Assembly: GCA_947650155.1 (NCBI GenBank) | Contig: CANSUS010000006.1 | Coordinates: forward strand, 15,558 to 79,557 | DNA: 64,000 nt | From: an uncultured Lachnospiraceae bacterium | Lineage (GTDB): Bacteria; Bacillota; Clostridia; Lachnospirales; Lachnospiraceae | Reading direction: 5' to 3' | Shown here: positions 2,553-18,601 of the stretch, piece after piece | Layout of the letters: each line of letters starts with the position of its first letter | How positions within the stretch are numbered: the stretch's first letter is position 1 | Notes under the pieces: generated by a model | What the model was told of the DNA's origin: nothing | The model's input: the letters and a program-made list of their open reading frames with translations, nothing else | The model's database searches: none | Position numbers and translations under genes: made by a program

Positions 2553-4062
2553 CGAAGAAGATTGTGTAAAAGAATTTATGAGCGCTGTGCAGGAACAGAT
2601 CAGTTATAAACCGATCAGAAAAACAGCATGTAAAGAGTTGGAAAATCATCTTGAAGATAAAGCGGAAGAGTACATAAAATCGGGAATGAGTAATGAACTG
2701 GCTGTATTGCAGGCAGTAAAGGAAATGGGCGATCCTGTGACAGTAGGGGTAAAACTGAACGAATCTTATTCCCTGCAGAAGGAGTATAAGCTTTTAGGGC
2801 TGATTTTGCTTTCCGTATTCGGAGGTATTCTTTCAAACTTTGTATATGGATATGATGTTTTCTATTCTTCTTACTTTTATCTTGGCGTGGCAGTTCTTTT
2901 AGTAGTAACGGTTTATGGATATCGGTTTTGTGTGATACATAGAAAATTATTAACGGCAGTCGCCATCCTATATGGTTTTGTATGGAGCGGATATGGCATT
3001 ATTAGCGGAATATTAAGAATGAAGGGACTGCCCGGCATCAGTGAAATATTATGGAGGTGGAATGCGGACAGTGAGGGAATTTTTTCAGAATTATTTTCGG
3101 AACTGATGCTCCGATTATTTTCGATGACAGTTCAGTTTAATGGAATGTTTTTCATGATTCCATTTTGTGTGATACTGATTTTTCCCAGAGCGGATGCGGG
3201 GGATAAAAAGAAGCAGACGGCGGGGCTTATCCTTTCCGGTGTATTTGTATTTGCCGTAACGGTCAGTACTGCATTAGGTCCGACGGCACATTATCTGCTT
3301 TCGGCAGTCAGTATTGTGATTGTTTCTTATTTGGCGCTTTCCATAGCGGCTGCATGGAAGAAGAAAAATATCCTGATTCCAATCCTGTTCTCGTTGGCTT
3401 GTTTTTTATTTTTGTTTACCTATAACGGCGCCGGATTACATAAAAGTATAGAGCTTTTTGCGACGCCCGAAAAACAGGCGGTAAGTATCTGGGAGGACGG
3501 CTATAATGGCGTTTTAATCAAAGAATTGCTGGGACGATCCAGGCCTGTGGGCAGTGTCAGCCTGACGGAGGAGGAAATCAGAAATTATGCCACCGGTGAC
3601 TGGTATTTCACAGGAGAAAAAGACTTTAAAATGCCTTCCTATATTGAGGAAAAGACGCAGATAGAGGATATTCTGCCGCAGCATTATTTGAATAACTATC
3701 GGATCGCTTATGTGATCATTCGATACGGATGGGTGGCAGGCTGCCTGTTTTTGGCAGGTCTGGCGGGACTGATTGCACTGCTTTTTTATACCACATTTCA
3801 AATAAAGAACCGGCTTGGATTCTTACTGGCATTTGGCAGCAGCATGGCGCTTAGTATGCAGATATTGATTTATATATTGGGAAATTTCGGACATCAATTA
3901 GGGAACTTTCCGAATCTGCCTTTTATCTCGGAAGGAATTGTAAGTATTATTGTGAATATGACGCTGGCAGGAATCATTTTATCTGCGTACCGATACGACA
4001 GGGTAATTGGGGAGCAGTCTGCAACGACATGGAAGACAGGGAGGAAGGCACAAAAGGTTTAG
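2536..4062 (+). CDS. Polytopic membrane protein: PadR-partner N-terminal helical domain plus a degenerate SEDS (FtsW/RodA)-like C-terminal region
   Basis: It overlaps the end of the PadR gene, suggesting coupling. It has many hydrophobic helices. The C-terminal NLPFISEGIVSIIVNMTLAGIILS resembles the SEDS PLPF(V/I)SYGGSS block, but with substitutions. Confidence 0.5.
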   Translation: MGFCVNEEDCVKEFMSAVQEQISYKPIRKTACKELENHLEDKAEEYIKSGMSNELAVLQAVKEMGDPVTVGVKLNESYSLQKEYKLLGLILLSVFGGILSNFVYGYDVFYSSYFYLGVAVLLVVTVYGYRFCVIHRKLLTAVAILYGFVWSGYGIISGILRMKGLPGISEILWRWNADSEGIFSELFSELMLRLFSMTVQFNGMFFMIPFCVILIFPRADAGDKKKQTAGLILSGVFVFAVTVSTALGPTAHYLLSAVSIVIVSYLALSIAAAWKKKNILIPILFSLACFLFLFTYNGAGLHKSIELFATPEKQAVSIWEDGYNGVLIKELLGRSRPVGSVSLTEEEIRNYATGDWYFTGEKDFKMPSYIEEKTQIEDILPQHYLNNYRIAYVIIRYGWVAGCLFLAGLAGLIALLFYTTFQIKNRLGFLLAFGSSMALSMQILIYILGNFGHQLGNFPNLPFISEGIVSIIVNMTLAGIILSAYRYDRVIGEQSATTWKTGRKAQKV

Positions 4063-4164
4063 ACTTTATTCATTGTAATATCTACCCGTATATGATACAC
4101 TTTGAATAGTATTTTATCAATGATTGATCCGGTTTCAATTGTAAATTGGATATGGAGTATATTT

Positions 4165-6096
4165 ATGAGAAAGATTGCTCTTATAATGGACGGGTGGAAA
4201 CGTTTTTTTACTTATGCATGGCCGGCTGGAATATTAGAGAGGATTCATGAAACAAATGAAGATGTGAATCTCTATATTTTTACCAGTTCTGGAAACTGGA
4301 GTAAGGATGAGGATTATACAACAGGCGAATACAATATTTACAGACTTCCGAAACTGGATGAGTTTGATGGTATTATTTTAGATTTGGATAATATTATCTG
4401 TCAGGATGTGCAGGAAGAATTGATAAAAAGAATAGACAAACTGGATGTGCCGGTCATTTCTATCGGAAAAGAGGCTTCGGATTTTTATTATGTTGGCATC
4501 AATAATTATAAAGCCATGAAAGAGGTTATCAGGCATTTGCACCAGCATCATAAATGCCGGAAATACTGGTTTATAATGGGGCCAAAAGGCAATTATGAAA
4601 ACGAGCAGCGGATGAGAGCGCTTAAGGATTATATGGCAGAAGAGGGGATTCCTTTTTCTGAGGATGAATTTTATCTTGAAAGTTTTGAATATCAGTGCGG
4701 TGTGAATGGATTTAAATATTTGTATGAGAAATATCATTTTCTGCCGGAAGCAGTTATTTGCGGAAATGATAATATTGCAGTAGGTGTATGTGAAGCGGCA
4801 GGAGCATATGGCTATACGGCTCCCCGGGATTTTTTAATTACAGGTTTTGATAATTTTGATAAGGCAGCATATTATGTTCCTCAAATTGCTACAGTGGAGC
4901 ATAACAGGGAAGAAGTCGGTTACTGCTGTGTCGATTTGTTTTTGCGTTTGTGGGCAGGTGAAAATGTATCCAGATTTCATTATACGAAAGCGGAAGGAAT
5001 CTTCTGGGGAAGCTGTGGATGCAGGAATGAGATTGAGCTGGATGCACGTGAGCATCTGAAAAATCAAATTCTATATGGAATTGAGTCGGATGAATTTGAC
5101 GAAGAAGTGCTTTTTCTGGAATATGAGTTGATGCAGTGCAGTACTGTAAAGGAAATGATGAACTGTATTCCACAGTGTATTCCATCTATGCGTTGTGATG
5201 CCATGTATCTGATTTTGGATGATCATATTAATGCATTTAAAAAGCATCCTGAACTATACATTAATCAGCAGTTAGATGATGAAGGTTTTTGTACGACAGG
5301 TTATCCTGATACAATGAGGGTAAGTTTTGCTTATGAAGACGGAAAAGTACTTGACACAGAGGACATGACGATCCAAAATATTTTCCCAATGTTTGATTAC
5401 AGGGAAGGCGGAAAAAATTTTCTGTTTCTTCCATTACATTTTCGGAGTAAGACTGTGGGATATTTTGTAATCCGCAATGCTGTTTATCTAATGGAAAAAC
5501 AGTATCTTTTCCAGATTATAAAAACGCTTACTACGGCAATAGAGAATTTACATAAAAAAGAAAAACTGGAATATATGAACCAGATGTTGTCAGAACTATA
5601 TATCAGAGACGCGATGACGGGGATGTATAACCGTTTTGGCTATCAGAGTCTGGCAGCGGAGTATTTTACAAGGATGCATGAGAACAAAGAGAGCATTCTT
5701 ATTATGTTTATTGATTTGGACAGGTTAAAATATATTAATGATAATTTTGGACATGAATGGGGCGACTTTGCTATTATAAGAACTGCCAAAACCATTATGA
5801 AGTACTGTGATAAAGAAGCGATTCCTGCCAGAACCGGAGGGGATGAATTTGTACTTGTCCAACGAAGCATACCACGGGAAGAAGCGGAGAAGATGATACA
5901 GAATATCCGACAGGAGCTGACAGAGATTTCCGCGAAAGAAAAGGCGCCTTTTGGTTTGAGCGTCAGCGTAGGCATGACGATTACATCCCCGGAGAGTGGA
6001 AAAACTATGGAAGAGTACGTCAGGGAAGCGGATGAGATTATGTATCAGGAAAAGACTGCCAAAAGAATGGAGCGGAAGTCGGAACGGGAACGCTAA
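4165..6096 (+). CDS. Diguanylate cyclase (GGDEF) with an N-terminal LacI/PBP1-type sugar-binding-like domain
   Basis: The C-terminus has DAMTGMYNRFGY...FIDLDRLKYINDNFGHEWGD...RTGGDEFVLV (GGDEF). The N-terminal ~300 aa look like a periplasmic-binding-protein type I fold, with no signal peptide. The start is moved to the ATG behind a GGAG SD. Confidence 0.8.
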   Translation: MRKIALIMDGWKRFFTYAWPAGILERIHETNEDVNLYIFTSSGNWSKDEDYTTGEYNIYRLPKLDEFDGIILDLDNIICQDVQEELIKRIDKLDVPVISIGKEASDFYYVGINNYKAMKEVIRHLHQHHKCRKYWFIMGPKGNYENEQRMRALKDYMAEEGIPFSEDEFYLESFEYQCGVNGFKYLYEKYHFLPEAVICGNDNIAVGVCEAAGAYGYTAPRDFLITGFDNFDKAAYYVPQIATVEHNREEVGYCCVDLFLRLWAGENVSRFHYTKAEGIFWGSCGCRNEIELDAREHLKNQILYGIESDEFDEEVLFLEYELMQCSTVKEMMNCIPQCIPSMRCDAMYLILDDHINAFKKHPELYINQQLDDEGFCTTGYPDTMRVSFAYEDGKVLDTEDMTIQNIFPMFDYREGGKNFLFLPLHFRSKTVGYFVIRNAVYLMEKQYLFQIIKTLTTAIENLHKKEKLEYMNQMLSELYIRDAMTGMYNRFGYQSLAAEYFTRMHENKESILIMFIDLDRLKYINDNFGHEWGDFAIIRTAKTIMKYCDKEAIPARTGGDEFVLVQRSIPREEAEKMIQNIRQELTEISAKEKAPFGLSVSVGMTITSPESGKTMEEYVREADEIMYQEKTAKRMERKSERER

Positions 6097-6143
6097 AAAT
6101 GCAAATGGACCTGAAAATGAGGATTAGAGATTTTGAAAAGATT

Positions 6144-6169
6144 ACAGCCGCTTTTTAAAAAGCGGCTGT
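6144..6169. terminator. Bidirectional intrinsic terminator between convergent genes
   Basis: Perfect hairpin ACAGCCGCTTTTT/AAAAAGCGGCTGT with A/T runs on both sides. Confidence 0.8.
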
Positions 6170-6205
6170 AAAAATATTTGTAATGTCTTATTATAGAAAA
6201 TGCTG

Positions 6206-7660
6206 TTATAATTTATTCATCTGGCTTAAAAGTTCAATCTTCGTATCATAAAGTTTCTGGGAGAGATCCACATATACTTCATGGGGATTTACAAGTCTTC
6301 TTGTTTCCTCCCAGAGCGTATTTAATTCTTTTTGACAATATTCCCTGATTTCCATTGTTTTTGGGGATGTATACACACATTCCCCATTTAAAAATACAGG
6401 CGTCAAAATTTCACGGAGGATATAACTGCCGGCTTCTAAGCGCGTGTGTTTCCAGGGTTCTATTGGATCAAATAAAAGCAGGCTGTTTTCTTCAGAAAAA
6501 TGTTCTTCTTTCAGACAGATCAAATCGGCTTTTATTTTGCCGGATTCTTTTTCATAAATACGATATATTGTTTTATTCCCCGGATTGGTTACCTTTTCTG
6601 AATTTTCGGAGAGTTTAATCTTAGGAATGAATGTACCGCTCTCATCCCGGATTGCTGCAAGTTTGTATACGCCGCCAAAGGAAGGGTTGTCCTTGGAGGT
6701 GATCAGATTTGTACCAACACCCCATGAAGTGATAGCGGCGCCCTGCGTTTTTAAGCTGTCGATCAGAAATTCATCCAGATCGTTGGAGGCAGAAATAACT
6801 GCGTCTGTAAATCCGGCTTCGTCCAACATTTTTCTTGCACGTTTGGAAAGATATGCAAGATCACCGCTGTCCAGGCGAATACCATAATTATCAAGAGTAA
6901 TGCCGTTTTCCCGCATTTCACGAAATACCCGGATGGCATTGGGAATGCCGGACTTTAAGGTGTCGTAGGTATCTACTAAAAGGATACAGGCGTGAGGATA
7001 CATATCTGCATAGGTTTTAAATGCAGTATATTCATCAGGAAAACTCATAATCCAACTATGCGCATGAGTACCCTTGACCGGTACATCAAACAGCTGTCCG
7101 CAAAGCACATTAGAAGTGCCGACACAGCCGCCGATGACTGCGGCTCTTGCACCAAGGACTCCAGCGTCCGGTCCCTGCGCACGGCGCAGACCAAATTCCA
7201 TAATGCCGTCGCCTTTTGCGGCATAACATACTCTGGAGGCTTTGGTAGCAATCAGGCTTTGATGATTGATAATATTTAAAATAGCAGTTTCTACAAGCTG
7301 CGCTTCCATAATCGGTGCAATGACTTTGACCATTGGCTCCCTTGGAAACATGACAGTGCCTTCCGGAATGGCATAGATATCGCCGGAGAATTTAAAATCT
7401 TTTAAGTAAGTCAGAAAATCATCTTCAAAAATACCCAGACTTTTCAGATAATCAATATCTTCTTTATCAAAATGCAGATCCTTTATATATTGGATGATCT
7501 GTTCCAGACCGGCGGAAATGGCATAACCGCCGCCACAGGGATTGGTACGGAAAAAAGCGTCAAAAATAACGGTCTCATTGCGGTCTTTGTGTTTAAAATA
7601 CCCCTGCATCATTGTCAATTCATAAAGATCAGTTAGAAGTGTCAGATTTTGTCTGTCCAT
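6206..7660 (-). CDS. pncB: Nicotinate phosphoribosyltransferase
   Basis: LLTDLYELTMMQGYF N-terminus. Length (484 aa) and overall pattern are typical of NAPRTase. Confidence 0.9.
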   Translation of the reverse strand: MDRQNLTLLTDLYELTMMQGYFKHKDRNETVIFDAFFRTNPCGGGYAISAGLEQIIQYIKDLHFDKEDIDYLKSLGIFEDDFLTYLKDFKFSGDIYAIPEGTVMFPREPMVKVIAPIMEAQLVETAILNIINHQSLIATKASRVCYAAKGDGIMEFGLRRAQGPDAGVLGARAAVIGGCVGTSNVLCGQLFDVPVKGTHAHSWIMSFPDEYTAFKTYADMYPHACILLVDTYDTLKSGIPNAIRVFREMRENGITLDNYGIRLDSGDLAYLSKRARKMLDEAGFTDAVISASNDLDEFLIDSLKTQGAAITSWGVGTNLITSKDNPSFGGVYKLAAIRDESGTFIPKIKLSENSEKVTNPGNKTIYRIYEKESGKIKADLICLKEEHFSEENSLLLFDPIEPWKHTRLEAGSYILREILTPVFLNGECVYTSPKTMEIREYCQKELNTLWEETRRLVNPHEVYVDLSQKLYDTKIELLSQMNKL

Positions 7661-10474: not shown

Positions 10475-11620
10475 ATGCGAAACGGGATCATTGAATTTAT
10501 AAAAAAGGAAACGGTGTTGTGCGCTGCGATTATACTGGCGGCAGTATCCGTATTTTTTGTCCCGCCAGACAGGGAATATTTTACCTATATTGATTTCAGA
10601 ACGCTGGCGATTTTATTTTGTCTGATGAGTGTGATGGCAGGGTTACAGAAAATCGGATTGTTTAAATGGATTGCCAAAAAGCTTCTTGGCTGTGTAAAAG
10701 GCAGCTGCAGCCTTGTTCTGATTTTGGTCTTATTGTGCTTTTTTTCGAGTATGCTTATTACCAATGATGTGGCGTTGATCACGTTTGTGCCGTTTACTTT
10801 TACGGTATTGAATATGCTGGGGGAGGATGGAAAAAAGAGGCTGCTTCTGCCTGTTGTCGTGATGCAGACAATTGCGGCGAATCTGGGCAGCATGCTGACG
10901 CCGGTCGGCAATCCGCAGAACTTGTATCTTTTTGGAAGAGCAGGGATTTCTATCAGCCGTTTTTTGTTGTTAATGCTGCCATATACCATTTTGTCATTTA
11001 TCCTTTTGGCAGGATGGAGCCTGATACAGGGCAGTACATATTCTAAAAATTTAGACCTGGCGGCAGTAACTGTAGAGGAAGAGATCCTGTTTGAGAAAAA
11101 GACAAAATATTTGCTTATTGTTTATTTTACGCTGTTTTTTCTCTGTCTGCTTGCAGTGGGGCATATATTGCCGTGGCAGGCGGTTCTTCTGCTGGTTTTT
11201 GTTATAATATTTGTGATGGACAGGCAGGCGATTACAAAAGTAGACTATTCTTTGCTTTTCACATTTGCAGGGTTTTTTATCTTTATCGGGAATGTAGGAA
11301 GAATCCCGGTATTTTGTGAATTTTTGCAGGAAATGGTAGGAGGCAGGGAAGTGTATACTGCCATTATTGCAAGTCAGGTCATCAGTAATGTCCCGGCGGC
11401 ACTGCTTTTGTCAGGATTTACAGAAGATTTTTCCAGTCTCATTATCGGGACTAATCTGGGCGGACTGGGAACTTTAATCGCGTCTATGGCAAGTCTGATT
11501 TCTTATAAATACGTGGCAAAAGAAGCGGGGGAGCGTAAGGGGAAATATATTGGGTTGTTTACGGCAGGGAATGTCTGCTTTTTGGCGGCGCTTATTATTT
11601 TAAACATATTACTGCGCTAA
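10475..11620 (+). CDS. ArsB/NhaD (citrate transporter-like) superfamily anion permease
   Basis: About 10 TM helices. The GNPQNLYLF motif is typical of the ArsB/NhaD permease superfamily. Confidence 0.7.
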   Translation: MRNGIIEFIKKETVLCAAIILAAVSVFFVPPDREYFTYIDFRTLAILFCLMSVMAGLQKIGLFKWIAKKLLGCVKGSCSLVLILVLLCFFSSMLITNDVALITFVPFTFTVLNMLGEDGKKRLLLPVVVMQTIAANLGSMLTPVGNPQNLYLFGRAGISISRFLLLMLPYTILSFILLAGWSLIQGSTYSKNLDLAAVTVEEEILFEKKTKYLLIVYFTLFFLCLLAVGHILPWQAVLLLVFVIIFVMDRQAITKVDYSLLFTFAGFFIFIGNVGRIPVFCEFLQEMVGGREVYTAIIASQVISNVPAALLLSGFTEDFSSLIIGTNLGGLGTLIASMASLISYKYVAKEAGERKGKYIGLFTAGNVCFLAALIILNILLR

Positions 11621-11696: not shown

Positions 11697-11753
11697 GTGA
11701 AAAATAAATTTTTCACAGGCGGATTTGTGCTTGCGCCCAAATTTGCGTGTTGA
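11697..11753 (+). CDS. Candidate 18-aa upstream small ORF (V/M-KNKFFTGGFVLAPKFAC)
   Basis: GTG start 6 nt after a strong SD (AGGGAGGG). It overlaps a perfect 22-bp palindrome and ends 19 nt before the next gene's start codon. Confidence 0.3.
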   Translation: MKNKFFTGGFVLAPKFAC

Positions 11754-11772
11754 GCAAGAATGGAGGATTATT

Positions 11773-11994
11773 ATGAGGCTGGAAGAACTTTTTTCAGGGA
11801 AGCTGTTTATTTCTGATCTGGGAGAGACACAGACTGTAGTAGAGAATGAGAAGGAGATTGTAATAGGGCAGTATGCAGTCTGGGCGCCGGTCAACGGAGC
11901 GGAAAAGCATCAAATTGTAGAGGTCGGAGATGATCTTGGACTTTTAATGAGCAAGTATAATATTTCCGAAGAAAGCGTATGTGTTTTGGCATAG
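11773..11994 (+). CDS. Hypothetical small protein (73 aa), first gene of the four-gene cluster
   Basis: ATG behind SD TGGAGGA. I recognise no family. Confidence 0.6.
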   Translation: MRLEELFSGKLFISDLGETQTVVENEKEIVIGQYAVWAPVNGAEKHQIVEVGDDLGLLMSKYNISEESVCVLA

Positions 11995-12044
11995 ATTAAG
12001 AGTAAAGAGAATTTGAATCTGGCAGAGCAGAAATGGGGACGAGA

Positions 12045-12479
12045 ATGAAAGTTGAAAATTTGGTCACGTCGATTGGAGCGGCGGTTCAGGATGCACACAG
12101 AATCATTGAACAAAAATATATCAGTAATTTTTTCGATCATTATTTTATTGAAGACAAGGATGAAATCACAGACAAATATACATATAAACCTAAAACGGTA
12201 GAAATTTTACTTTCGGATTCTCAAGAACAAAAGGTAATTTCAGCTCCAATAGCAGCATTGGCACAGCATACAAATATGAATTTGGAATATATCAAGCTGA
12301 ATCTAAATATTAGTGTGATAAATGAAACGGAAGATGAAATAGAAATTACTTCGCAGGCCGCAGTTGATAAAAGTACTGGAGACAGTACAAAATATGGCGA
12401 GTTGGAACTTATGTTTAAGTGCCAGAATGCGCCGGAGGGAATATCCAGAATAGAAACATATTTAGACGGAATTTTATAA
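12045..12479 (+). CDS. Hypothetical protein, paralog 1 (possibly DUF2589-like)
   Basis: Shares the N-terminal block LVTSIGAAVQDAH and the later block ISAPIAALAQHTNMNLEYIKLNLNISV with the next ORF. The DUF2589 resemblance is from memory only. Confidence 0.6.
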   Translation: MKVENLVTSIGAAVQDAHRIIEQKYISNFFDHYFIEDKDEITDKYTYKPKTVEILLSDSQEQKVISAPIAALAQHTNMNLEYIKLNLNISVINETEDEIEITSQAAVDKSTGDSTKYGELELMFKCQNAPEGISRIETYLDGIL

Positions 12480-12542
12480 TTTTTGTAAATTAAAAAATTT
12501 GCCGGGAAAAAATGGCATTTTTATAAAAAAGGAGGTAAGGGA

Positions 12543-13118
12543 ATGGCGATTAGTAAAGATTTTGTTGGATTGCCGTTAGGATTGTTGGTATCTCAACCGA
12601 TTATTGAGGTAGCAAAAGGGCAGGCAGAGCTTTGTAATGTTTATCTGGAACAATTGTTTAAACTGGCATTTAAAAAAATGCCGGACACAAATAAGAATGA
12701 AGCGGTCGAAACAAGAGTTGTGAAATTTAAACTTAACAGAACTATTGTGGATGCAAACAGTGGTTCAACAAAGCCGGTTGCCGTTGAGGTAGAAGCGCCG
12801 CTTTTGTCACTTGTTCCGGTACCGGCATTTACGATGGATGAAGCGACAGTAAAATTTACTATGGAGGTAAAGGAATCTACAGTTGATAAGGTAACAGTTG
12901 GTACAGAGAATACGTTTACGGGAACCTTTGGCGTATGGGGATATAATAGTACGATATCAGGTAAGGTTACCACTAATATAGAAAATACACGAACCTCGGA
13001 TAAAAGTGCTAAATATGAAATATATGCAAGAGCGGCACAGCAGCCCCCGTCGGAAGGGATGGCAAAGCTGACCAGTCTTTTTGCTTCTGTAATTGAACCA
13101 ATAACAACTGGAAAGTAA
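12543..13118 (+). CDS. Hypothetical protein, paralog 2 (possibly DUF2589-like)
   Basis: Strong SD AAGGAGGTAAGG. GLPLGLLVSQPIIEVAKGQAE and VEAPLLSLVPVPAFTMDEATVKFTMEV parallel the previous ORF. Confidence 0.65.
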   Translation: MAISKDFVGLPLGLLVSQPIIEVAKGQAELCNVYLEQLFKLAFKKMPDTNKNEAVETRVVKFKLNRTIVDANSGSTKPVAVEVEAPLLSLVPVPAFTMDEATVKFTMEVKESTVDKVTVGTENTFTGTFGVWGYNSTISGKVTTNIENTRTSDKSAKYEIYARAAQQPPSEGMAKLTSLFASVIEPITTGK

Positions 13119-13151
13119 TAGGGATGTTGTGAGAGGAATGGGAAAGGCATA

Positions 13152-13487
13152 ATGAGAATCGGAAATCATGATTATACCTTTGCAGAAAAGAAGTATGGTA
13201 AAAAGGGCCGGGGCGTATTGGTTATTATAAATGGTATTGGAGCCAAAAATAATAAGGAAGGATATAGATTAGGGCGTGATTATAATCCACATGACAAAGA
13301 TTCAAACTGGTATTTGAAACAGCAGCATTATAATTTATTTTATAGAGAGCTGGGAATTGCTGTTGCAAACCGACTGGAAAACGGACAGCAAAACTGGAAC
13401 GATCATATTAGCTGGCCGAATACAATTCATGCCCGGATTCATAGGATAGAATATCATGCAATACGAGAGGACCTTTATTATTCTTAG
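13152..13487 (+). CDS. Hypothetical protein (111 aa), last gene of the four-gene cluster
   Basis: ORF in the same orientation, 33 nt after the previous stop. I recognise no family. Confidence 0.5.
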   Translation: MRIGNHDYTFAEKKYGKKGRGVLVIINGIGAKNNKEGYRLGRDYNPHDKDSNWYLKQQHYNLFYRELGIAVANRLENGQQNWNDHISWPNTIHARIHRIEYHAIREDLYYS

Positions 13488-13625
13488 ATATACTATTTTT
13501 TATAATGCGGTAGTGGCATATCCTTCACGCCAAAGTACACTCATAATTTTCAATTCCGAGTCAAAAAGCTAAATGTTCATTGATATTATCCTCCATACGC
13601 TACTATGGTAGTTTGGAAAAAATTC

Positions 13626-13654
13626 TTGACATATTCTTTCGTATTATGTATAAA
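13626..13654 (+). promoter_or_regulatory. Near-consensus sigma-A promoter
   Basis: TTGACA, a 17-nt spacer, then TATAAA with TG immediately upstream. Confidence 0.65.
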
Positions 13655-13697
13655 ATAATTAATGAGCATTAGCTCAGCTATAAAAGCGTATGCTTTT

Positions 13698-13801
13698 GTA
13701 AAAAGCGAGTGGTCCCTACCGTAAGTGGGAATGGTAAAAGCAGTGGTCCCTACTGTGAGTGGGAGTGGTAAAAGCAGTGGTCCCTACTGTGAGTGGGAAT
13801 T
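13698..13801 (+). repeat. Three tandem direct repeats (36, 34 and 34 nt)
   Basis: Units are GTAAAAGC(A)GTGGTCCCTACYGTRAGTGGGARTG at 13698-13733, 13734-13767 and 13768-13801. Each can fold as UCCC(U)AC-YGURA-GUGGGA, and the two variable positions fall in the loop. Confidence 0.9.
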
Positions 13802-13812
13802 GTGAATGTTAT

Positions 13813-13840
13813 GGCTGCGAGATTTTCGCAGCCTTTCATT
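13813..13840 (+). terminator. Intrinsic terminator
   Basis: GGCTGCGA-gattt-TCGCAGCC is a perfect 8-bp stem followed by TTTCATTATTT. Confidence 0.75.
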
Positions 13841-13951
13841 ATTTGAAATCAAAAGTTTATATAGTATACATAAGGATGAAGGACAAATTTTGAAAGTAAA
13901 CTTTCAAATATTGATTGGTATGTGCGCTGAAGCGCACAGGGAGGTATAATA

Positions 13952-15649
13952 ATGAAGACAGCGGAAGAACTTCGTACGAAATTACGATCTATTGATCACA
14001 GGGGCTATCCGGCATATAAAGATTTAAAAGGAGAATATGATTTCAGGGATTATATCCTCTCCATTGATCATGTACAGGGAGATCCTTTTGCGGCTCCGTC
14101 CAGACTGTCTGTCCGGGTACAAAGGGCAAAAGCGGGGTTCCCGGCGGAATATTATGAAGAAACAGAAAAGAGGATTACCTTGCAGGATCATTTGACCAGA
14201 TTATTTGCAAAGCAGATAGGGGGAGGCAGCTTTCAGGCAAAGGGCTCAGGGAAGAGCGGGCTTTTGTCGGTTTCACGATGCGGGCAGGAAGTGTTGGAAC
14301 GTACGGCGTGCAGAGTAGACGGCGGTCTGGTGATAATACGGTTTGAAGCGGGGTTTCCGGCCAACGGGCGTTCGATCAATGCAGGTGAACTGGAAAAAAT
14401 GCTTTTTTCTATTTTGCCGGAATGTGTAAGGAAAAGTCTTTACTTTGAAAAAATTAATAAAGAAGCGTTAAAAGAAGCAATTATGCTTTGCGAGGATCAG
14501 CAGTTTATCAGGAACGGGCTGTCGGAGCAGGGGCTATGCGCCTTTATTGCAGACGGAGCCGTTTTGCCAAGACAGAGCGGGGTGTCGGATAAGCCGTTAA
14601 AGGATGCGGTAAAGTTCCGGTCGCCGGAGTCAATGAAAGTAACCTTTTTGCTTCCGAACAGAGGAAAGATTACCGGAATGGGAATCCGAAAAGGAATTAC
14701 GCTTTTTGTAGGCGGCGGCTATCATGGAAAATCTACAGTGCTGCAGGCTTTGCAGAACGGTGTATATAATCATATTGCAGGCGACGGCAGGGAGTTTGTC
14801 ATCACGGATGCCACTGCAATGAAGCTTCGGGCAGAGGATGGACGGAGCGTTTCTAATGTGGATATTTCGCCGTTTATCTCACACCTTCCAAGCGGAAAAG
14901 ATACCGGACATTTTTCTACAGAGGATGCCAGCGGCAGTACTTCTCAGGCAGCAGGATTAATGGAAGCAATTGAGAGTGGAAGCAGTCTGTTTCTGATTGA
15001 CGAGGATACTTCAGCAACAAATTTTATGATTCGGGACAGGCTGATGCAGCAGGTGATCAGTCCGAAAGAGGAGCCGATTACACCGTTTATCAACCGGGTA
15101 AACAGCTTATATCAGGATTTGGGAATTTCTACGGTGCTTGTGGCAGGCAGCAGCGGATCTTATTTCCATGTTGCGGATCATATTGTGCAGATGAAGGAGT
15201 ACGTGCCGATCGATATTACGAAGAAAGCGAAAGAAGCCGCACAGAACTTCGCTGTATTTGACACTGTGAAAGAGGCGTTTCCTGATTATGTAAAAGAACG
15301 CAGACCGAAGCCGGATATGGCGTTAAAGAAGGAAGAACGGTTAAAGATTAAGGCAATGGGAAGAAATGAGCTTTTGATCGCTAAAAATTCCGTAGAGTTA
15401 AGATATATGGAGCAGTTAAACGATGAGGAACAGACGATGGCTCTCGGATTTTTATTAAAGCAGTTAGAACTGAATCTGTTTGACGGACGAAAAACACTGG
15501 TGCAGGCAGTGGACATGCTGGAGGAACAGCTTAACAAAGGCGGATTGGAGAGTCTGTTCGGGAGAGGCGAGGTCAGCGCATCACTGGCACGTCCCAGAAG
15601 GCAGGAGATTTTTACCTGTGTGGACCGGTATCGGAAATTATATTTTTAG
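13952..15649 (+). CDS. Predicted ABC-class ATPase (COG3044 / ABC_ATPase-type) of unknown function
   Basis: 565 aa. The N-terminus LRSIDHRGYPAYKDLKGEY...GDPFAAPS and the Walker-A-like GGGYHGKST are typical of this uncharacterised ATPase family. Confidence 0.75.
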   Translation: MKTAEELRTKLRSIDHRGYPAYKDLKGEYDFRDYILSIDHVQGDPFAAPSRLSVRVQRAKAGFPAEYYEETEKRITLQDHLTRLFAKQIGGGSFQAKGSGKSGLLSVSRCGQEVLERTACRVDGGLVIIRFEAGFPANGRSINAGELEKMLFSILPECVRKSLYFEKINKEALKEAIMLCEDQQFIRNGLSEQGLCAFIADGAVLPRQSGVSDKPLKDAVKFRSPESMKVTFLLPNRGKITGMGIRKGITLFVGGGYHGKSTVLQALQNGVYNHIAGDGREFVITDATAMKLRAEDGRSVSNVDISPFISHLPSGKDTGHFSTEDASGSTSQAAGLMEAIESGSSLFLIDEDTSATNFMIRDRLMQQVISPKEEPITPFINRVNSLYQDLGISTVLVAGSSGSYFHVADHIVQMKEYVPIDITKKAKEAAQNFAVFDTVKEAFPDYVKERRPKPDMALKKEERLKIKAMGRNELLIAKNSVELRYMEQLNDEEQTMALGFLLKQLELNLFDGRKTLVQAVDMLEEQLNKGGLESLFGRGEVSASLARPRRQEIFTCVDRYRKLYF

Positions 15650-16731: not shown

Positions 16732-18093
16732 ATGTCAATGGATATAAAACAGATTGTATTAGATTTATGTGCCATGAATGATGAACAGGAATGGTTTGAA
16801 TTTAAAGAGAATTGGTTTCAACCGGAAACATTAGGAGAGTATGTTTCCGCGTTATCAAACGCTGCGGCGTTCCATTATAAGAAATATGCTTATTTTATAT
16901 GGGGAGTTGAGGATGAGAATCATAAAATAGTTGGGACGACATTCAACCAATATTGTGACTATAATAAAGAACCTTATCAGAATTATCTTGCACGAAATCT
17001 TTCTCCGAGCTTGAATTTTTCTTTTGAGGAAGTTGAGATTCAGCAAAAAAGAGTTGTCGTATTGGTCATACCTGCGGCTTTTGAGATACCTACTGCATTT
17101 AAGGAAAAGCGGTATATAAGGATTGGATCATCGAAATGCAATATCAAGGACTATCCTAGGAGAGAGATTGAACTTTTTAAGATGCTTGATGGGAGAACAG
17201 AAACCATAGAAACAATTCCGGCAAAATATCAGGAACTTACTTTCCAAAAATTGTTTGGATATTATGGTTCAAAAGGAATTGTTTTAAATGATAAAACCTT
17301 TATAAAAAATTTAGGTTTACGCAATGAAGAAGGACAATTCAATTTATTGGCACAGCTGCTTTCGGACGATTCTCATTTTCCTCTCAGAGTATCTATATTT
17401 GAGGGGAAAACGAAAGGAACAAATCTGTTTTCAGTCAGGGAGTTTGGGAATAACTGCCTTTTATACAGTTTGGATGAATTATTGCGGTATGGCGACGTGC
17501 TCAATATCATACAGGCAGATGAAACAGACAGGGTTGTGGAAAGGAAAGAAGTGCCGCTGTTTGATAACAAGGCATTTCGGGAAGCAATCATCAATGCTGT
17601 CCTGCATAACAAATGGACAGAGGGAAACGAACCGATGATTTCCGTTTTTTCTGACAGAATAGAAATCTTATCAAGAGGCTCTCTGCCGCCGGCACAGACA
17701 ATGGAAGGCTTTTATATGGGGGAATCTGTTCCTGTGAATGAAAAACTGTCGGAAATATTTCTGCAATTGCATATCAGTGAGAAATCAGGGCGGGGAGTTC
17801 CTAAAATAACGGAAATTTATGGTAAAGAGGCGTTTGCATTTCGAGAAAATTCAATTGTTGTAACAATACCATTGAAAAAAATTAAAAAAGCCTCGAATAA
17901 AAAGCCATTAAATGCAAGAAGAAGAACAATTTTGACAGAAATGAGGGATAATCCCAACATAACGGCTGAAGAACTTCGTAAAATCTTAGGAATCAGTAAT
18001 ACGGCAGTAGAAAACAATATTTCATTTCTGCGTGAAAATGGCTATATTGAGAGAGTTGGTTCAAAAAAAGCAGGATATTGGAATGTGTTATAG
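16732..18093 (+). CDS. AlbA_2 (Schlafen-like divergent AAA) domain protein with a C-terminal winged-helix domain
   Basis: The N-terminus EWFEFKENW...ALSNA...YFIWGVED is typical of the AlbA_2 domain. The C-terminus ITAEELRKILGISNTAVENNISFLRENGYIERVG is a wHTH. Confidence 0.7.
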   Translation: MSMDIKQIVLDLCAMNDEQEWFEFKENWFQPETLGEYVSALSNAAAFHYKKYAYFIWGVEDENHKIVGTTFNQYCDYNKEPYQNYLARNLSPSLNFSFEEVEIQQKRVVVLVIPAAFEIPTAFKEKRYIRIGSSKCNIKDYPRREIELFKMLDGRTETIETIPAKYQELTFQKLFGYYGSKGIVLNDKTFIKNLGLRNEEGQFNLLAQLLSDDSHFPLRVSIFEGKTKGTNLFSVREFGNNCLLYSLDELLRYGDVLNIIQADETDRVVERKEVPLFDNKAFREAIINAVLHNKWTEGNEPMISVFSDRIEILSRGSLPPAQTMEGFYMGESVPVNEKLSEIFLQLHISEKSGRGVPKITEIYGKEAFAFRENSIVVTIPLKKIKKASNKKPLNARRRTILTEMRDNPNITAEELRKILGISNTAVENNISFLRENGYIERVGSKKAGYWNVL

Positions 18094-18280: not shown

Positions 18281-18601
18281 CACACACAAAAAGACGTTGA
18301 CGAAGACAGTAAGCATCCATTGAAGTTTCAGCGAGCCGGAGAGGGTGGGAGTCCGGTACGAGTAGAAGGCTGCCGAAGATCACTTCCGAGTTGCAGGTCC
18401 GAACCGTTGTCTGTAAGTGTAGCAGCAGAGAACCATACGCTGCAAGGCTTTAGTCAAATAAGTAGGAACTGACGGTTTTCCGCCGTTAAAGGAACACATA
18501 TAAAACTGTTTTGATGGAAAGAGCAGAAAACAGGGAGTATGTTTGTAACAGGTGGTATAACGGGATTTTGCCCCGTCCTTTTACAGGACGGGGTTTTTTT
18601 A
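18281..18601 (+). promoter_or_regulatory. T-box leader with isoleucine specifier AUC, upstream of ileS
   Basis: Promoter TTGACA-N18-TATAAT at 18245-18274. The specifier loop GAAGAUCACUUCCGAG has AUC at 18379-18381. A T-box-like AACAGGUGGUAUAACGGG follows. The terminator is CCCCGTCC-ttttaca-GGACGGGG plus T7. Confidence 0.85.

Follow-up and report, generated by a model that had tools for sequence, protein, structure and literature searches.

In a 64-kb stretch of DNA from an uncultured Lachnospiraceae bacterium, referred to here as the window and used for all coordinates, a promoter, a hairpin leader, three tandem repeats and a terminator stand together upstream of a gene for an ABC-class ATPase. 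Comparison with other genomes indicates that this interval is very probably an orphan antitoxin array of the ToxI family, i.e. the RNA component within a type III toxin-antitoxin (TA) system of the ToxIN type, and that it was likely left behind when its toxin gene, toxN, was lost. The original prediction, made from the sequence alone, had proposed a type III antitoxin-like unit without a toxin at this place, and this proposal holds: the module is homologous to modules linked to ToxN genes (PF13958) and the window lacks toxN. The promoter, leader hairpins, repeats and terminator that it had listed were all confirmed by sequence reading, Tandem Repeats Finder (TRF) and a terminator call. The elements, read directly over 13400-14100, are as follows.

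13604..13625, + strand: A-rich, UP-element-like left end of the toxI module, 5' of the -35 box; left limit of homology to toxIN cassettes of other species
13626..13654, + strand: toxI promoter TTGACA-N17-TATAAA (-35 at 13626-13631, -10 at 13649-13654), read directly
13663..13676, + strand: leader hairpin P1, UGAGC-AUUA-GCUCA, from sequence reading and folding
13679..13700, + strand: leader hairpin P2, UAUAAAAGC-GUAU-GCUUUUGUA, ending at the first A-run
13700..13735, + strand: toxI unit 1, 36 nt; A-run at 13700-13704, hairpin CCC(U)AC-CGUAA-GUGGG within 13713-13730
13736..13769, + strand: toxI unit 2, 34 nt; A-run at 13736-13739, hairpin within 13747-13764
13770..13803, + strand: toxI unit 3, the last, about 0.9 unit; A-run at 13770-13773, hairpin within 13781-13798
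13813..13844, + strand: intrinsic terminator GGCUGCGAG-AUU-UUCGCAGCC with T-rich tail; hairpin at 13813-13833
13834..13886, + strand: probable decayed remnant of the toxN 5' end (tentative), from position-restricted local alignment
13952..15649, + strand: gene of an ABC-class ATPase (PF20446, PF09818 and PF21117 by Pfam), outside the TA module

The toxI promoter was omitted by a consensus promoter scan only because the tool demands a T at the last position of the -10 box. Across eight aligned modules the -35 box is invariant and the -10 box nearly so, with its last two bases variable, and transcription would start near 13661. The stem of P1 is kept at other loci with changed loop and stem letters (GAGCGGCAGCUC, GAUAGG...CUUAUC and GAGAAAUAAUCUC; compared by eye, RNAalifold making no call), and for P2 RNAalifold predicted nine pairs from 17 leaders, five of them with compensatory double changes (e.g. 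GC in 9 and AU in 8 leaders at one pair). The repeats were called by TRF at 13701-13800 (period 34, 2.9 copies, 92% matches, score 170) and are the sole tandem repeat scoring at least 60 in the window. The hairpin motif GGTCCCTAC-N5-GTGGGA occurs in exactly three perfect copies, at 13711, 13745 and 13779; with up to three mismatches allowed there are four matches, the fourth having three mismatches, compared to 0.35 expected by chance. The terminator hairpin consists of eight Watson-Crick pairs and one G-U pair with a loop of three, followed by the T-rich tail, and the + strand over 13655-13845 folds with z = -3.6 relative to shuffles. Some details of the original prediction had to be revised. 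It had confined the polymorphism between units to the pentaloop, whereas AAAAA and GCGAG in unit 1 correspond to AAAA and GCAG in units 2 and 3, and the units read either GGGAAU or GGGAGU after the hairpin. The core of its proposed stem, CCC(U)AC/GUGGG, is supported, but the closing U-A pair is not conserved in homologues. Its statement that no open reading frame (ORF) fits the interval needs qualification, since two ORFs do overlap it (13759-13893, 44 aa; 13806-13949, 47 aa), but these are mechanical calls that traverse repeats and terminator.

The assignment to ToxI is backed by homologous arrays in other genomes. One genome per species was searched for two TCCCTAC-N5-GTGGGA hairpins spaced 8-24 nt apart, and the same array was found in 16 species genomes, the hosts being Roseburia, Ruminococcus, Oliverpabstia, Eubacterium, metagenome-assembled genomes (MAGs) of Lachnospiraceae and Oscillospiraceae, one Coriobacteriaceae MAG and one Muribaculum MAG. 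All 16 loci share the architecture of repeats and terminator, most also have the leader layout (consensus promoter, hairpin leader, GUAAAAAG, repeats, terminator), and in most of them an ORF starting with MKKQRFHLYHIDMKY... begins 20-30 nt past the terminator. A PF13958 ToxN gene lies directly downstream of the module in at least 7 of the 16 genomes, and an eighth extends beyond the available sequence. The downstream ORFs of L001, L002, L007 and L015 match PF13958 (ToxN_toxin) with E values of about 1e-46 to 1e-48, the best PDB match of the array-linked toxins is 4ATO, the ToxN of Bacillus thuringiensis (E = 1e-17), and a database search with the L013 toxin returned 773 relatives, named 'AbiQ' or 'type III toxin-antitoxin system ToxN/AbiQ family toxin' by their sources.

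The homology of the window to toxN-linked loci, which were found in other Lachnospiraceae and Oscillospiraceae genomes, is limited to about 13604-13849; in blastn comparisons with L008, L012, L001 and L013 it begins at 13604-13624. Over promoter, leader, repeats and terminator the module is 78-91% identical to these loci and over the repeats 95-99%, including the loci with full toxN, L001, L013 and L015. Single units were compared over a 35-nt frame that starts 2 nt 5' of the unit 2 and unit 3 parts listed above and overlaps them by 33 nt. In this comparison unit 2 is identical to the second units of L001 and L013, both beside an intact toxN, and unit 3 is identical to the last unit of L001, L006, L008, L012 and L013; between unit 1 and the first units of L006, L008, L012 and L013 there is a single-nt difference.

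The repeats of the toxIN family are 31-62 nt long and present in 1.9-5.6 copies (Blower 2012, Table 2, PMC3401426), a range that includes the 34 nt and 2.9 copies of our array; the promoter and the Rho-independent terminator of the family are also present and are conserved in the homologous modules. No PF13958 gene follows, the next gene being that of the ABC-ATPase, and the locus is the antitoxin part alone and no complete ToxIN. The homology to toxN-linked arrays, together with 34 nt x 2.9 copies and an A-run in each linker, is what identifies the array as ToxI of the ToxIN family. The closest known parallel is ToxIN of B. thuringiensis pAW63, whose ToxI likewise has 2.9 copies of 34 nt and whose ToxN cuts at A/AAAA (PMC5086642); the promoter-repeats-terminator layout is the same and the A-runs in the window linkers fit this cleavage preference. 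This likeness is one of length, copy number and layout, and the two differ in that the B. thuringiensis system has its toxN, whereas the array in the window is chromosomal, without toxN and placed before an unrelated ATPase gene. The array shares its bacterial group and its family with the toxIN loci reported from chromosomes of gut Lachnospiraceae, Ruminococcus torques and Roseburia (PMC3401426).

The original prediction had taken CptIN as its lead. CptIN of Coprococcus and Eubacterium rectale is also a type III system from the same gut clade and with the same overall layout, but its toxin is CptN and its CptI repeats are 40-48 nt long (Blower 2012, Table 2, PMC3401426), compared to 34 nt here, and the homologues of our array pair with ToxN/AbiQ toxins (PF13958). 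CptIN was therefore rejected. Rfam (release 15), scanned with E values of up to 10 allowed, returned no match with E<=1 for the region 12500-15000, the best being IS128 with E = 1.8 on the terminator, and nothing relevant to the array at the gathering score for the whole window; thus, no known cis-regulatory family, for which a check had been suggested, was recognised. Since the toxN-linked homologues L013 and L061 did not give a match above threshold either, the subfamily is missing from Rfam and its silence is uninformative with regard to identity.

Covariation among 59 distinct units is compatible with a pseudoknot. The stem CCC(U)AC/GUGGG hardly varies and contains a single covarying pair (2-5'; C-G in 53 units, U-A in 5, U-G in 1). 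Covariation is also seen between the 5' linker and the first base of the loop: 26 units combine CAGU with ACUG, and about 28 combine GGU or G(N)GU with ACCG. The second helix, which shares A and C with the hairpin, would form a compact H-type pseudoknot with the 3-bp CCC/GGG stem, and such a fold is compatible with known ToxI RNAs (PMC5086642). A distant toxIN at L049 (12544-13140, +), whose toxN is about 30% identical to the Lachnospiraceae toxins and whose repeats are 36 nt long, has the same hairpin UCCCUAC-N5-GUGGGA, and a linker/loop change between its two units leaves the proposed second helix intact, with A-U in one and G-C in the other.

We found no toxN in the window, either by tblastn with four diverse ToxN proteins (best E 0.06) or by a ToxN profile hidden Markov model applied to six-frame segments (best E 0.14), and no ToxN relatives on the fetched contigs of the same species or of the sister species, which cover the local region. 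The loci in other species form a series of toxN states, with eight long genes, three N-terminal stubs (L006, 101 aa; L012, 40 aa; L009, 25 aa) and five loci without the gene. Metagenome contigs from the species of L001 have either a toxN stub of 51 aa (L043) or unrelated DNA adjoining the array (L044, L047). In the window, about 50 nt 3' of the terminator align to the ribosome-binding region and the first ~15 codons of toxN (MKKQRFHLYHIDMKY), with several indels and with the start codon lost. The position-restricted local alignment gave shuffle P values of 0.004 for L006, 0.01 for L012, 0.016 for L008 and L048 and 0.02 for L013; the corresponding alignments to L001, L015 and L043 were not significant, and neither was an unrestricted search. 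This stretch is tentatively taken as the probable decayed 5' end of toxN. Compared to the toxN-linked locus L006, the remnant is about 72% identical over 57 aligned columns with seven gap events (hand count), whereas the adjoining module is 89% identical and its sole gap is one whole repeat; that the remnant is far more decayed than the module next to it points to continuing constraint on the orphan array.

Toxin-degraded loci as such are already known: Lachnospiraceae toxIN and truncated-toxin loci, the latter with complete repeats and terminators but shortened toxins, were noted in a toxin-led search (Blower 2012, PMC3401426). The truncated-toxin loci resemble the stubs of L006, L009, L012 and L043, but in the window the toxin is gone save for the possible ~50-nt remnant. 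Because that survey started from toxin homologues, full orphans were invisible to it, and what is new relative to the loci reported there is that the array is conserved in two species and linked to the ATPase gene. We found no description of orphan ToxI arrays in the literature, of which our coverage was incomplete and gives no proof of absence.

The orphan state is shared within the species. Conspecific contigs were recovered by exact-protein look-up of two neighbouring genes, and in more than 10 samples and one NCBI MAG (GCA_948497985.1) all contigs that span the site carry the identical orphan module there. The number of repeats is 3 or 2 (L022, L023, L025, L029 and L030 compared with the window), the difference being a clean 34-nt deletion of unit 2 with the rest identical, and several short-read contigs stop inside the array (L024, L027). 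Beyond this species, the nearest orthologues of the ATPase belong to a sister species (L031-L036, L055-L060) and are 94% identical at the amino-acid and 83% at the nucleotide level. In the sister species (e.g. L031) the same orphan module, with two repeats, stands directly before the ATPase gene, whose ATG lies about 35 nt past the toxI terminator, compared to a junction of about 110 nt in the window. The upstream gene is a different one (TauE). On the points of copy number and co-occurrence raised in the original prediction, repeat number varies among conspecifics, and the module stays with the ATPase gene in spite of the different upstream genes. The modules of the window and L031 have derived characters in common that set them apart from all toxN-linked modules, namely an extra base before hairpin 1, GCUCAG, GCGAGU in unit 1 and GCGAGA in the terminator.

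The two modules differ at 17 of 183 sites (91% identical), whereas 106 of 218 four-fold sites (49%) differ in the adjacent ATPase gene (binomial P ~1e-30). Divergence of the ATPase gene is uniform from its first 150 nt, which argues against a recent recombination tract. Most of the 17 differences are located in the promoter spacer (28 of 32 promoter sites are identical) and in the leader, where they change hairpin loops (AUUA to GGCA in P1, GUAU to AUUU in P2) or the stretch between the hairpins, or turn an A-U pair of P2 into G-U. The best-conserved parts are the repeats (58/62) and the block of spacer plus terminator (alignment columns 220-262; 40/41). Since the module is far less diverged than the four-fold sites of the ATPase gene, the array is probably still constrained, and we lean somewhat towards the view that it is under selection and not a neutral relic.

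The explanations that compete with ours overlap with it on the identity of the array and differ on its present role. The toxin of a TA pair can be freely lost, and the antitoxin cannot go first. The array could thus be a mere leftover of toxN deletion, without present function and bound to decay, a possibility that we consider doubtful but deserving of serious attention. It would account for the decay series between species, from full toxN through stubs to none, for the variation between two and three repeats among conspecifics, and for L050 and L051, two relatives in which the repeats are missing and the -35 end is all that is left of the module. The different right junctions in the window and L031 would also allow recent, independent losses of toxN. 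However, a relic would hardly be expected to remain 91% identical next to a gene with 49% of its four-fold sites changed, nor to have decayed so much less than the toxN remnant when compared with the same relatives; moreover, the promoter, both leader hairpins, the units and the terminator are intact, and two of the units are those found in a functional context.

Several points weigh against our own explanation. The unequal right junctions (~110 nt and ~35 nt) are one of them, and a test for a toxN remnant common to the window and L031 did not reach significance (P = 0.17 and 0.05). Each lineage may have undergone its own recent loss of the toxin gene, in which case the conservation of toxI would reflect past selection by toxN in cis. 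Second, L050 and L051 nest with L031 by ATPase identity (93-97% nucleotide identity to L031), yet they are without repeats. As global alignment of array-bearing and array-less intergenic regions with MAFFT was uninterpretable, local alignments were used for these two: they keep about 28 nt of the left module end (the A-rich stretch plus TTGACATATT), fused to a new -10 box before the ATPase gene, and what remains in L051, the ~28 nt GTAGTTTGGAAAAAATTCTTGACATATT, aligns with a score of 34, compared to a shuffle maximum of 28. Such a history requires two losses or recombination. Absence of the repeats from close relatives that keep both neighbours, which the original prediction had named as a refuting observation, was found in part, in this one lineage, where only the -35 end is left; the array is dispensable in that lineage, and this does not argue against its identity as ToxI. 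Third, the test for constraint within species is uninformative, because L031-type strains have no differences in the 256-nt module and the first 400 nt of the ATPase gene are equally invariant. Fourth, the toxN remnant consists of about 50 A/T-rich nt with P values of only 0.004-0.02, the absence of toxN refers to 64 kb, so that toxN may lie elsewhere or gene conversion from another toxI copy may have taken place, and the repeat units that gave the pseudoknot covariation are phylogenetically non-independent.

If the array is still an antitoxin, its mode of action can be proposed from the known systems. Transcription from the strong toxI promoter would mostly end at the terminator and yield an RNA of about 180 nt, which, without ToxN, would stay as an unprocessed precursor. 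A cognate ToxN, brought in by a toxIN-bearing mobile element or a phage or encoded by a copy elsewhere in the genome, would cut this precursor in the A-runs (UAAAAG), for which the linker positions 13700-13704, 13736-13739 and 13770-13773 are the predicted sites, and the freed 34-nt pseudoknot-like units would trap and inhibit the toxin. The array would then serve as a toxin-less 'immunity' or anti-addiction RNA. A stand-alone, toxin-less array of this kind, the pseudo-ToxI of phage TE, neutralises the ToxN of Pectobacterium atrosepticum ToxIN (PMC5086642). The logic is the same as in the role proposed here; the phage array is a means of counter-defence that arose by repeat expansion or capture, whereas the array in the window is chromosomal, would have arisen by toxin loss and has a cellular gene behind it. 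Carriage by phages or plasmids was not detected for our module itself, a blastn search against PLSDB plasmids and INPHARED phages giving no match and the exact double-hairpin pattern giving 0 hits in IMG/VR; a relaxed pattern found one viral contig (L061) with a related orphan array and toxIN. Orphan (solitary) type II antitoxins are also kept without their toxins and have been proposed to protect against incoming plasmid toxins. These are proteins, whereas the antitoxin in the window is a repeat RNA whose specificity would be limited to one ToxN subfamily.

The selecting ToxN might also reside in the same genome, as a cognate toxN or a second toxIN elsewhere, so that the array would be a working second antitoxin that is orphaned only locally. 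Conservation of the repeats is what a resident ToxN would be expected to impose, genomes with several type III loci have been reported (Blower 2012, PMC3401426), and on viral contig L061 a toxin-less array indeed stands beside a complete toxIN. We regard such a split arrangement as quite unlikely, since no toxN is present within the 64 kb and no ToxN relatives were found in the local region on the conspecific and sister-species contigs. As to the L061 array itself (IMGVR_UViG_3300029574_000132, 56 kb; array at 10790-11130, -), it consists of 3 x 34 nt with the covarying stem variant GUCCUAC/GUGGAA, has its own promoter and terminator, and lies immediately upstream of the complete toxI-toxN; this toxN and the L001 toxin share 59% identity.

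Apart from its possible action in trans, the toxI module is probably involved in transcription of the gene that follows it. In canonical loci the terminator separates toxI from toxN and read-through feeds toxN (PMC5086642, PMC3401426); here, the read-through fraction would now supply the ABC-ATPase gene in the former toxN position, in a kind of promoter capture. The original prediction had assigned the ATPase gene a promoter of its own, but no promoter-like site of at least 9/12 is present between the terminator and its start. Since no separate promoter was found, read-through from the toxI promoter probably feeds the gene, and we slightly favour this promoter as its main source of transcription. 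In the lineage of L050 and L051 the toxI -35 box appears to have become a component of the promoter of the ATPase gene. In L041, a more distant orthologue, the array is absent and the gene has a TTGACA-17-TATAAT promoter of its own. The spacer after the terminator in the window showed no significant similarity to the 5' untranslated region of L051 (scores 19-20, shuffle mean 19). If this inference is right, the locus is a natural example of a selfish cassette that donated a strong promoter and a leaky terminator to a host gene.

From here it is a small step to suppose that the module is nowadays mainly a cis-regulatory leader, a promoter plus attenuator that sets ATPase expression, and that antitoxin activity is irrelevant. 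Besides the lack of a further promoter-like site, the start of the L031 ATPase gene about 35 nt past the terminator, exactly in the canonical start position of toxN, would fit such an exaptation, as would the linkage of toxI to the ATPase gene in spite of different upstream genes and the retention of the toxI -35 box in the ATPase promoters of L050 and L051. In an exapted leader, however, the repeats should drift, and it is the repeats (58/62) and the terminator block (40/41) that are best conserved. L050 and L051 would express the ATPase without repeats or terminator, more distant orthologues do with ordinary promoters, and no cis-regulatory family of Rfam was matched. Taken together, we judge a mainly regulatory role unlikely.

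The neighbours of the array do not resemble toxins, as the original prediction had stated, with a DUF2589 operon upstream and the ABC-class ATPase downstream according to Pfam. The ATPase could nevertheless be imagined to serve the repeat RNA as a novel toxin or protein partner, given that it occupies the toxin position after the terminator in two species and has the C-terminal domain MRB1590_C, with an MRB1590-like fold; MRB1590 is an RNA-binding ABC-fold ATPase (PMC4538832). This is highly improbable. The gene is very widespread (8000 hits at E<=1e-100), orthologues with 73-97% nucleotide identity occur without the array (L037, L041, L050-L054), PADLOC gave no defence match for it, and the homologues of the array pair with ToxN elsewhere. 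As array-less orthologues are ubiquitous, the ATPase was rejected as a toxin.

Antitoxin arrays without toxins were also seen in other contexts. L005 carries six consecutive toxin-less units at 3230-4950 (+), each with a 12/12 consensus promoter (TTGACA-17-TATAAT) and most with terminators, whose array periods are 36, 34, 49, 53, 43 and 36 nt; no toxin family was found for the ORFs that overlap them. Genes for TnpV, a VWA protein and a protein with a Zeta-toxin domain adjoin the cluster and suggest that it is cargo of a conjugative element, and a tRNA fragment lies where the locus ends. Similar clusters occur in L003 (reverse complement, ~5880-7000) and L011 (230-1000, +), the three comprising 3-6 units each. 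Some of their arrays are variants of the toxI array in the window, others are unrelated units in the size range of cptI/tenpI. The clusters may be antitoxin-only islands on mobile elements. We would tentatively extend this to toxin-less type III arrays in general, as a selected class of stand-alone small RNA genes and not debris, which in chromosomes would outlast toxN and give immunity to ToxN carried in by mobile elements, and which on mobile elements would be collected in islands, although we hold this generalisation with reserve.

Single orphan arrays were found in two further loci. In L010, the Coriobacteriaceae MAG, a three-unit array with a GC-rich leader and terminator lies at ~6700-6990 on an actinobacterial contig and is flanked on both sides by the direct repeat GAGAAAAGGGGTTTGGCCCC. 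This repeat may derive from target duplication or from a repeated element, a hint that the toxin-less module may have been transferred alone. Six near-perfect units without toxN are present in L016, which was binned as Muribaculum.

Toxin-led surveys are blind to RNA antitoxins without toxins, and in about half of the species in which our scan found this toxI subfamily toxN is degraded or absent. If the arrays are expressed and competent, they would be RNA 'immunity genes' that blunt plasmid addiction and phage-abortive killing by cognate ToxN, with an effect on the spread of mobile elements and phages in gut Lachnospiraceae. The islands, if they are what they seem, could disarm abortive-infection systems of the ToxIN, CptIN and TenpIN types in new hosts and, if confirmed, would represent a new anti-defence cargo made only of small RNAs.

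The surroundings of the array in the window are chromosomal, with transporters, the DUF2589 operon, the ATPase gene and ileS; the ATPase gene is followed by one for a formate/nitrite transporter. The upstream operon at 11725-13487 (+) comprises four genes of unknown function (89 aa; DUF2589, 148 aa; DUF2589, 191 aa; 111 aa). The repeat-less L051 has this operon upstream of its ATPase gene too, and in L031 the TauE gene takes its place; the operon is therefore independent of the toxI module. PADLOC, run on eight neighbouring proteins, gave no match for the ATPase or the DUF2589 operon, and its sole matches, which were weak (the best to PDC-S50 with E = 1e-9, also a CARF/Csa3-like helix-turn-helix (HTH)), were to a 453-aa protein encoded two genes 3' of the array (16732-18093, +). 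This protein, in which Schlafen/AlbA_2 and a HATPase_c_4-like region are joined to a winged-helix HTH at the C-terminus, may be a defence-associated regulator. Finally, a T-box leader was recognised upstream of ileS at 18288-18583 (+) with 82 bits and E = 3e-18; the default Rfam scan misses it because this score is just under the gathering score of 93. The T-box overlaps the mechanical ORF start at 18539, and the real start of ileS is probably at about 18632, as called in L017.

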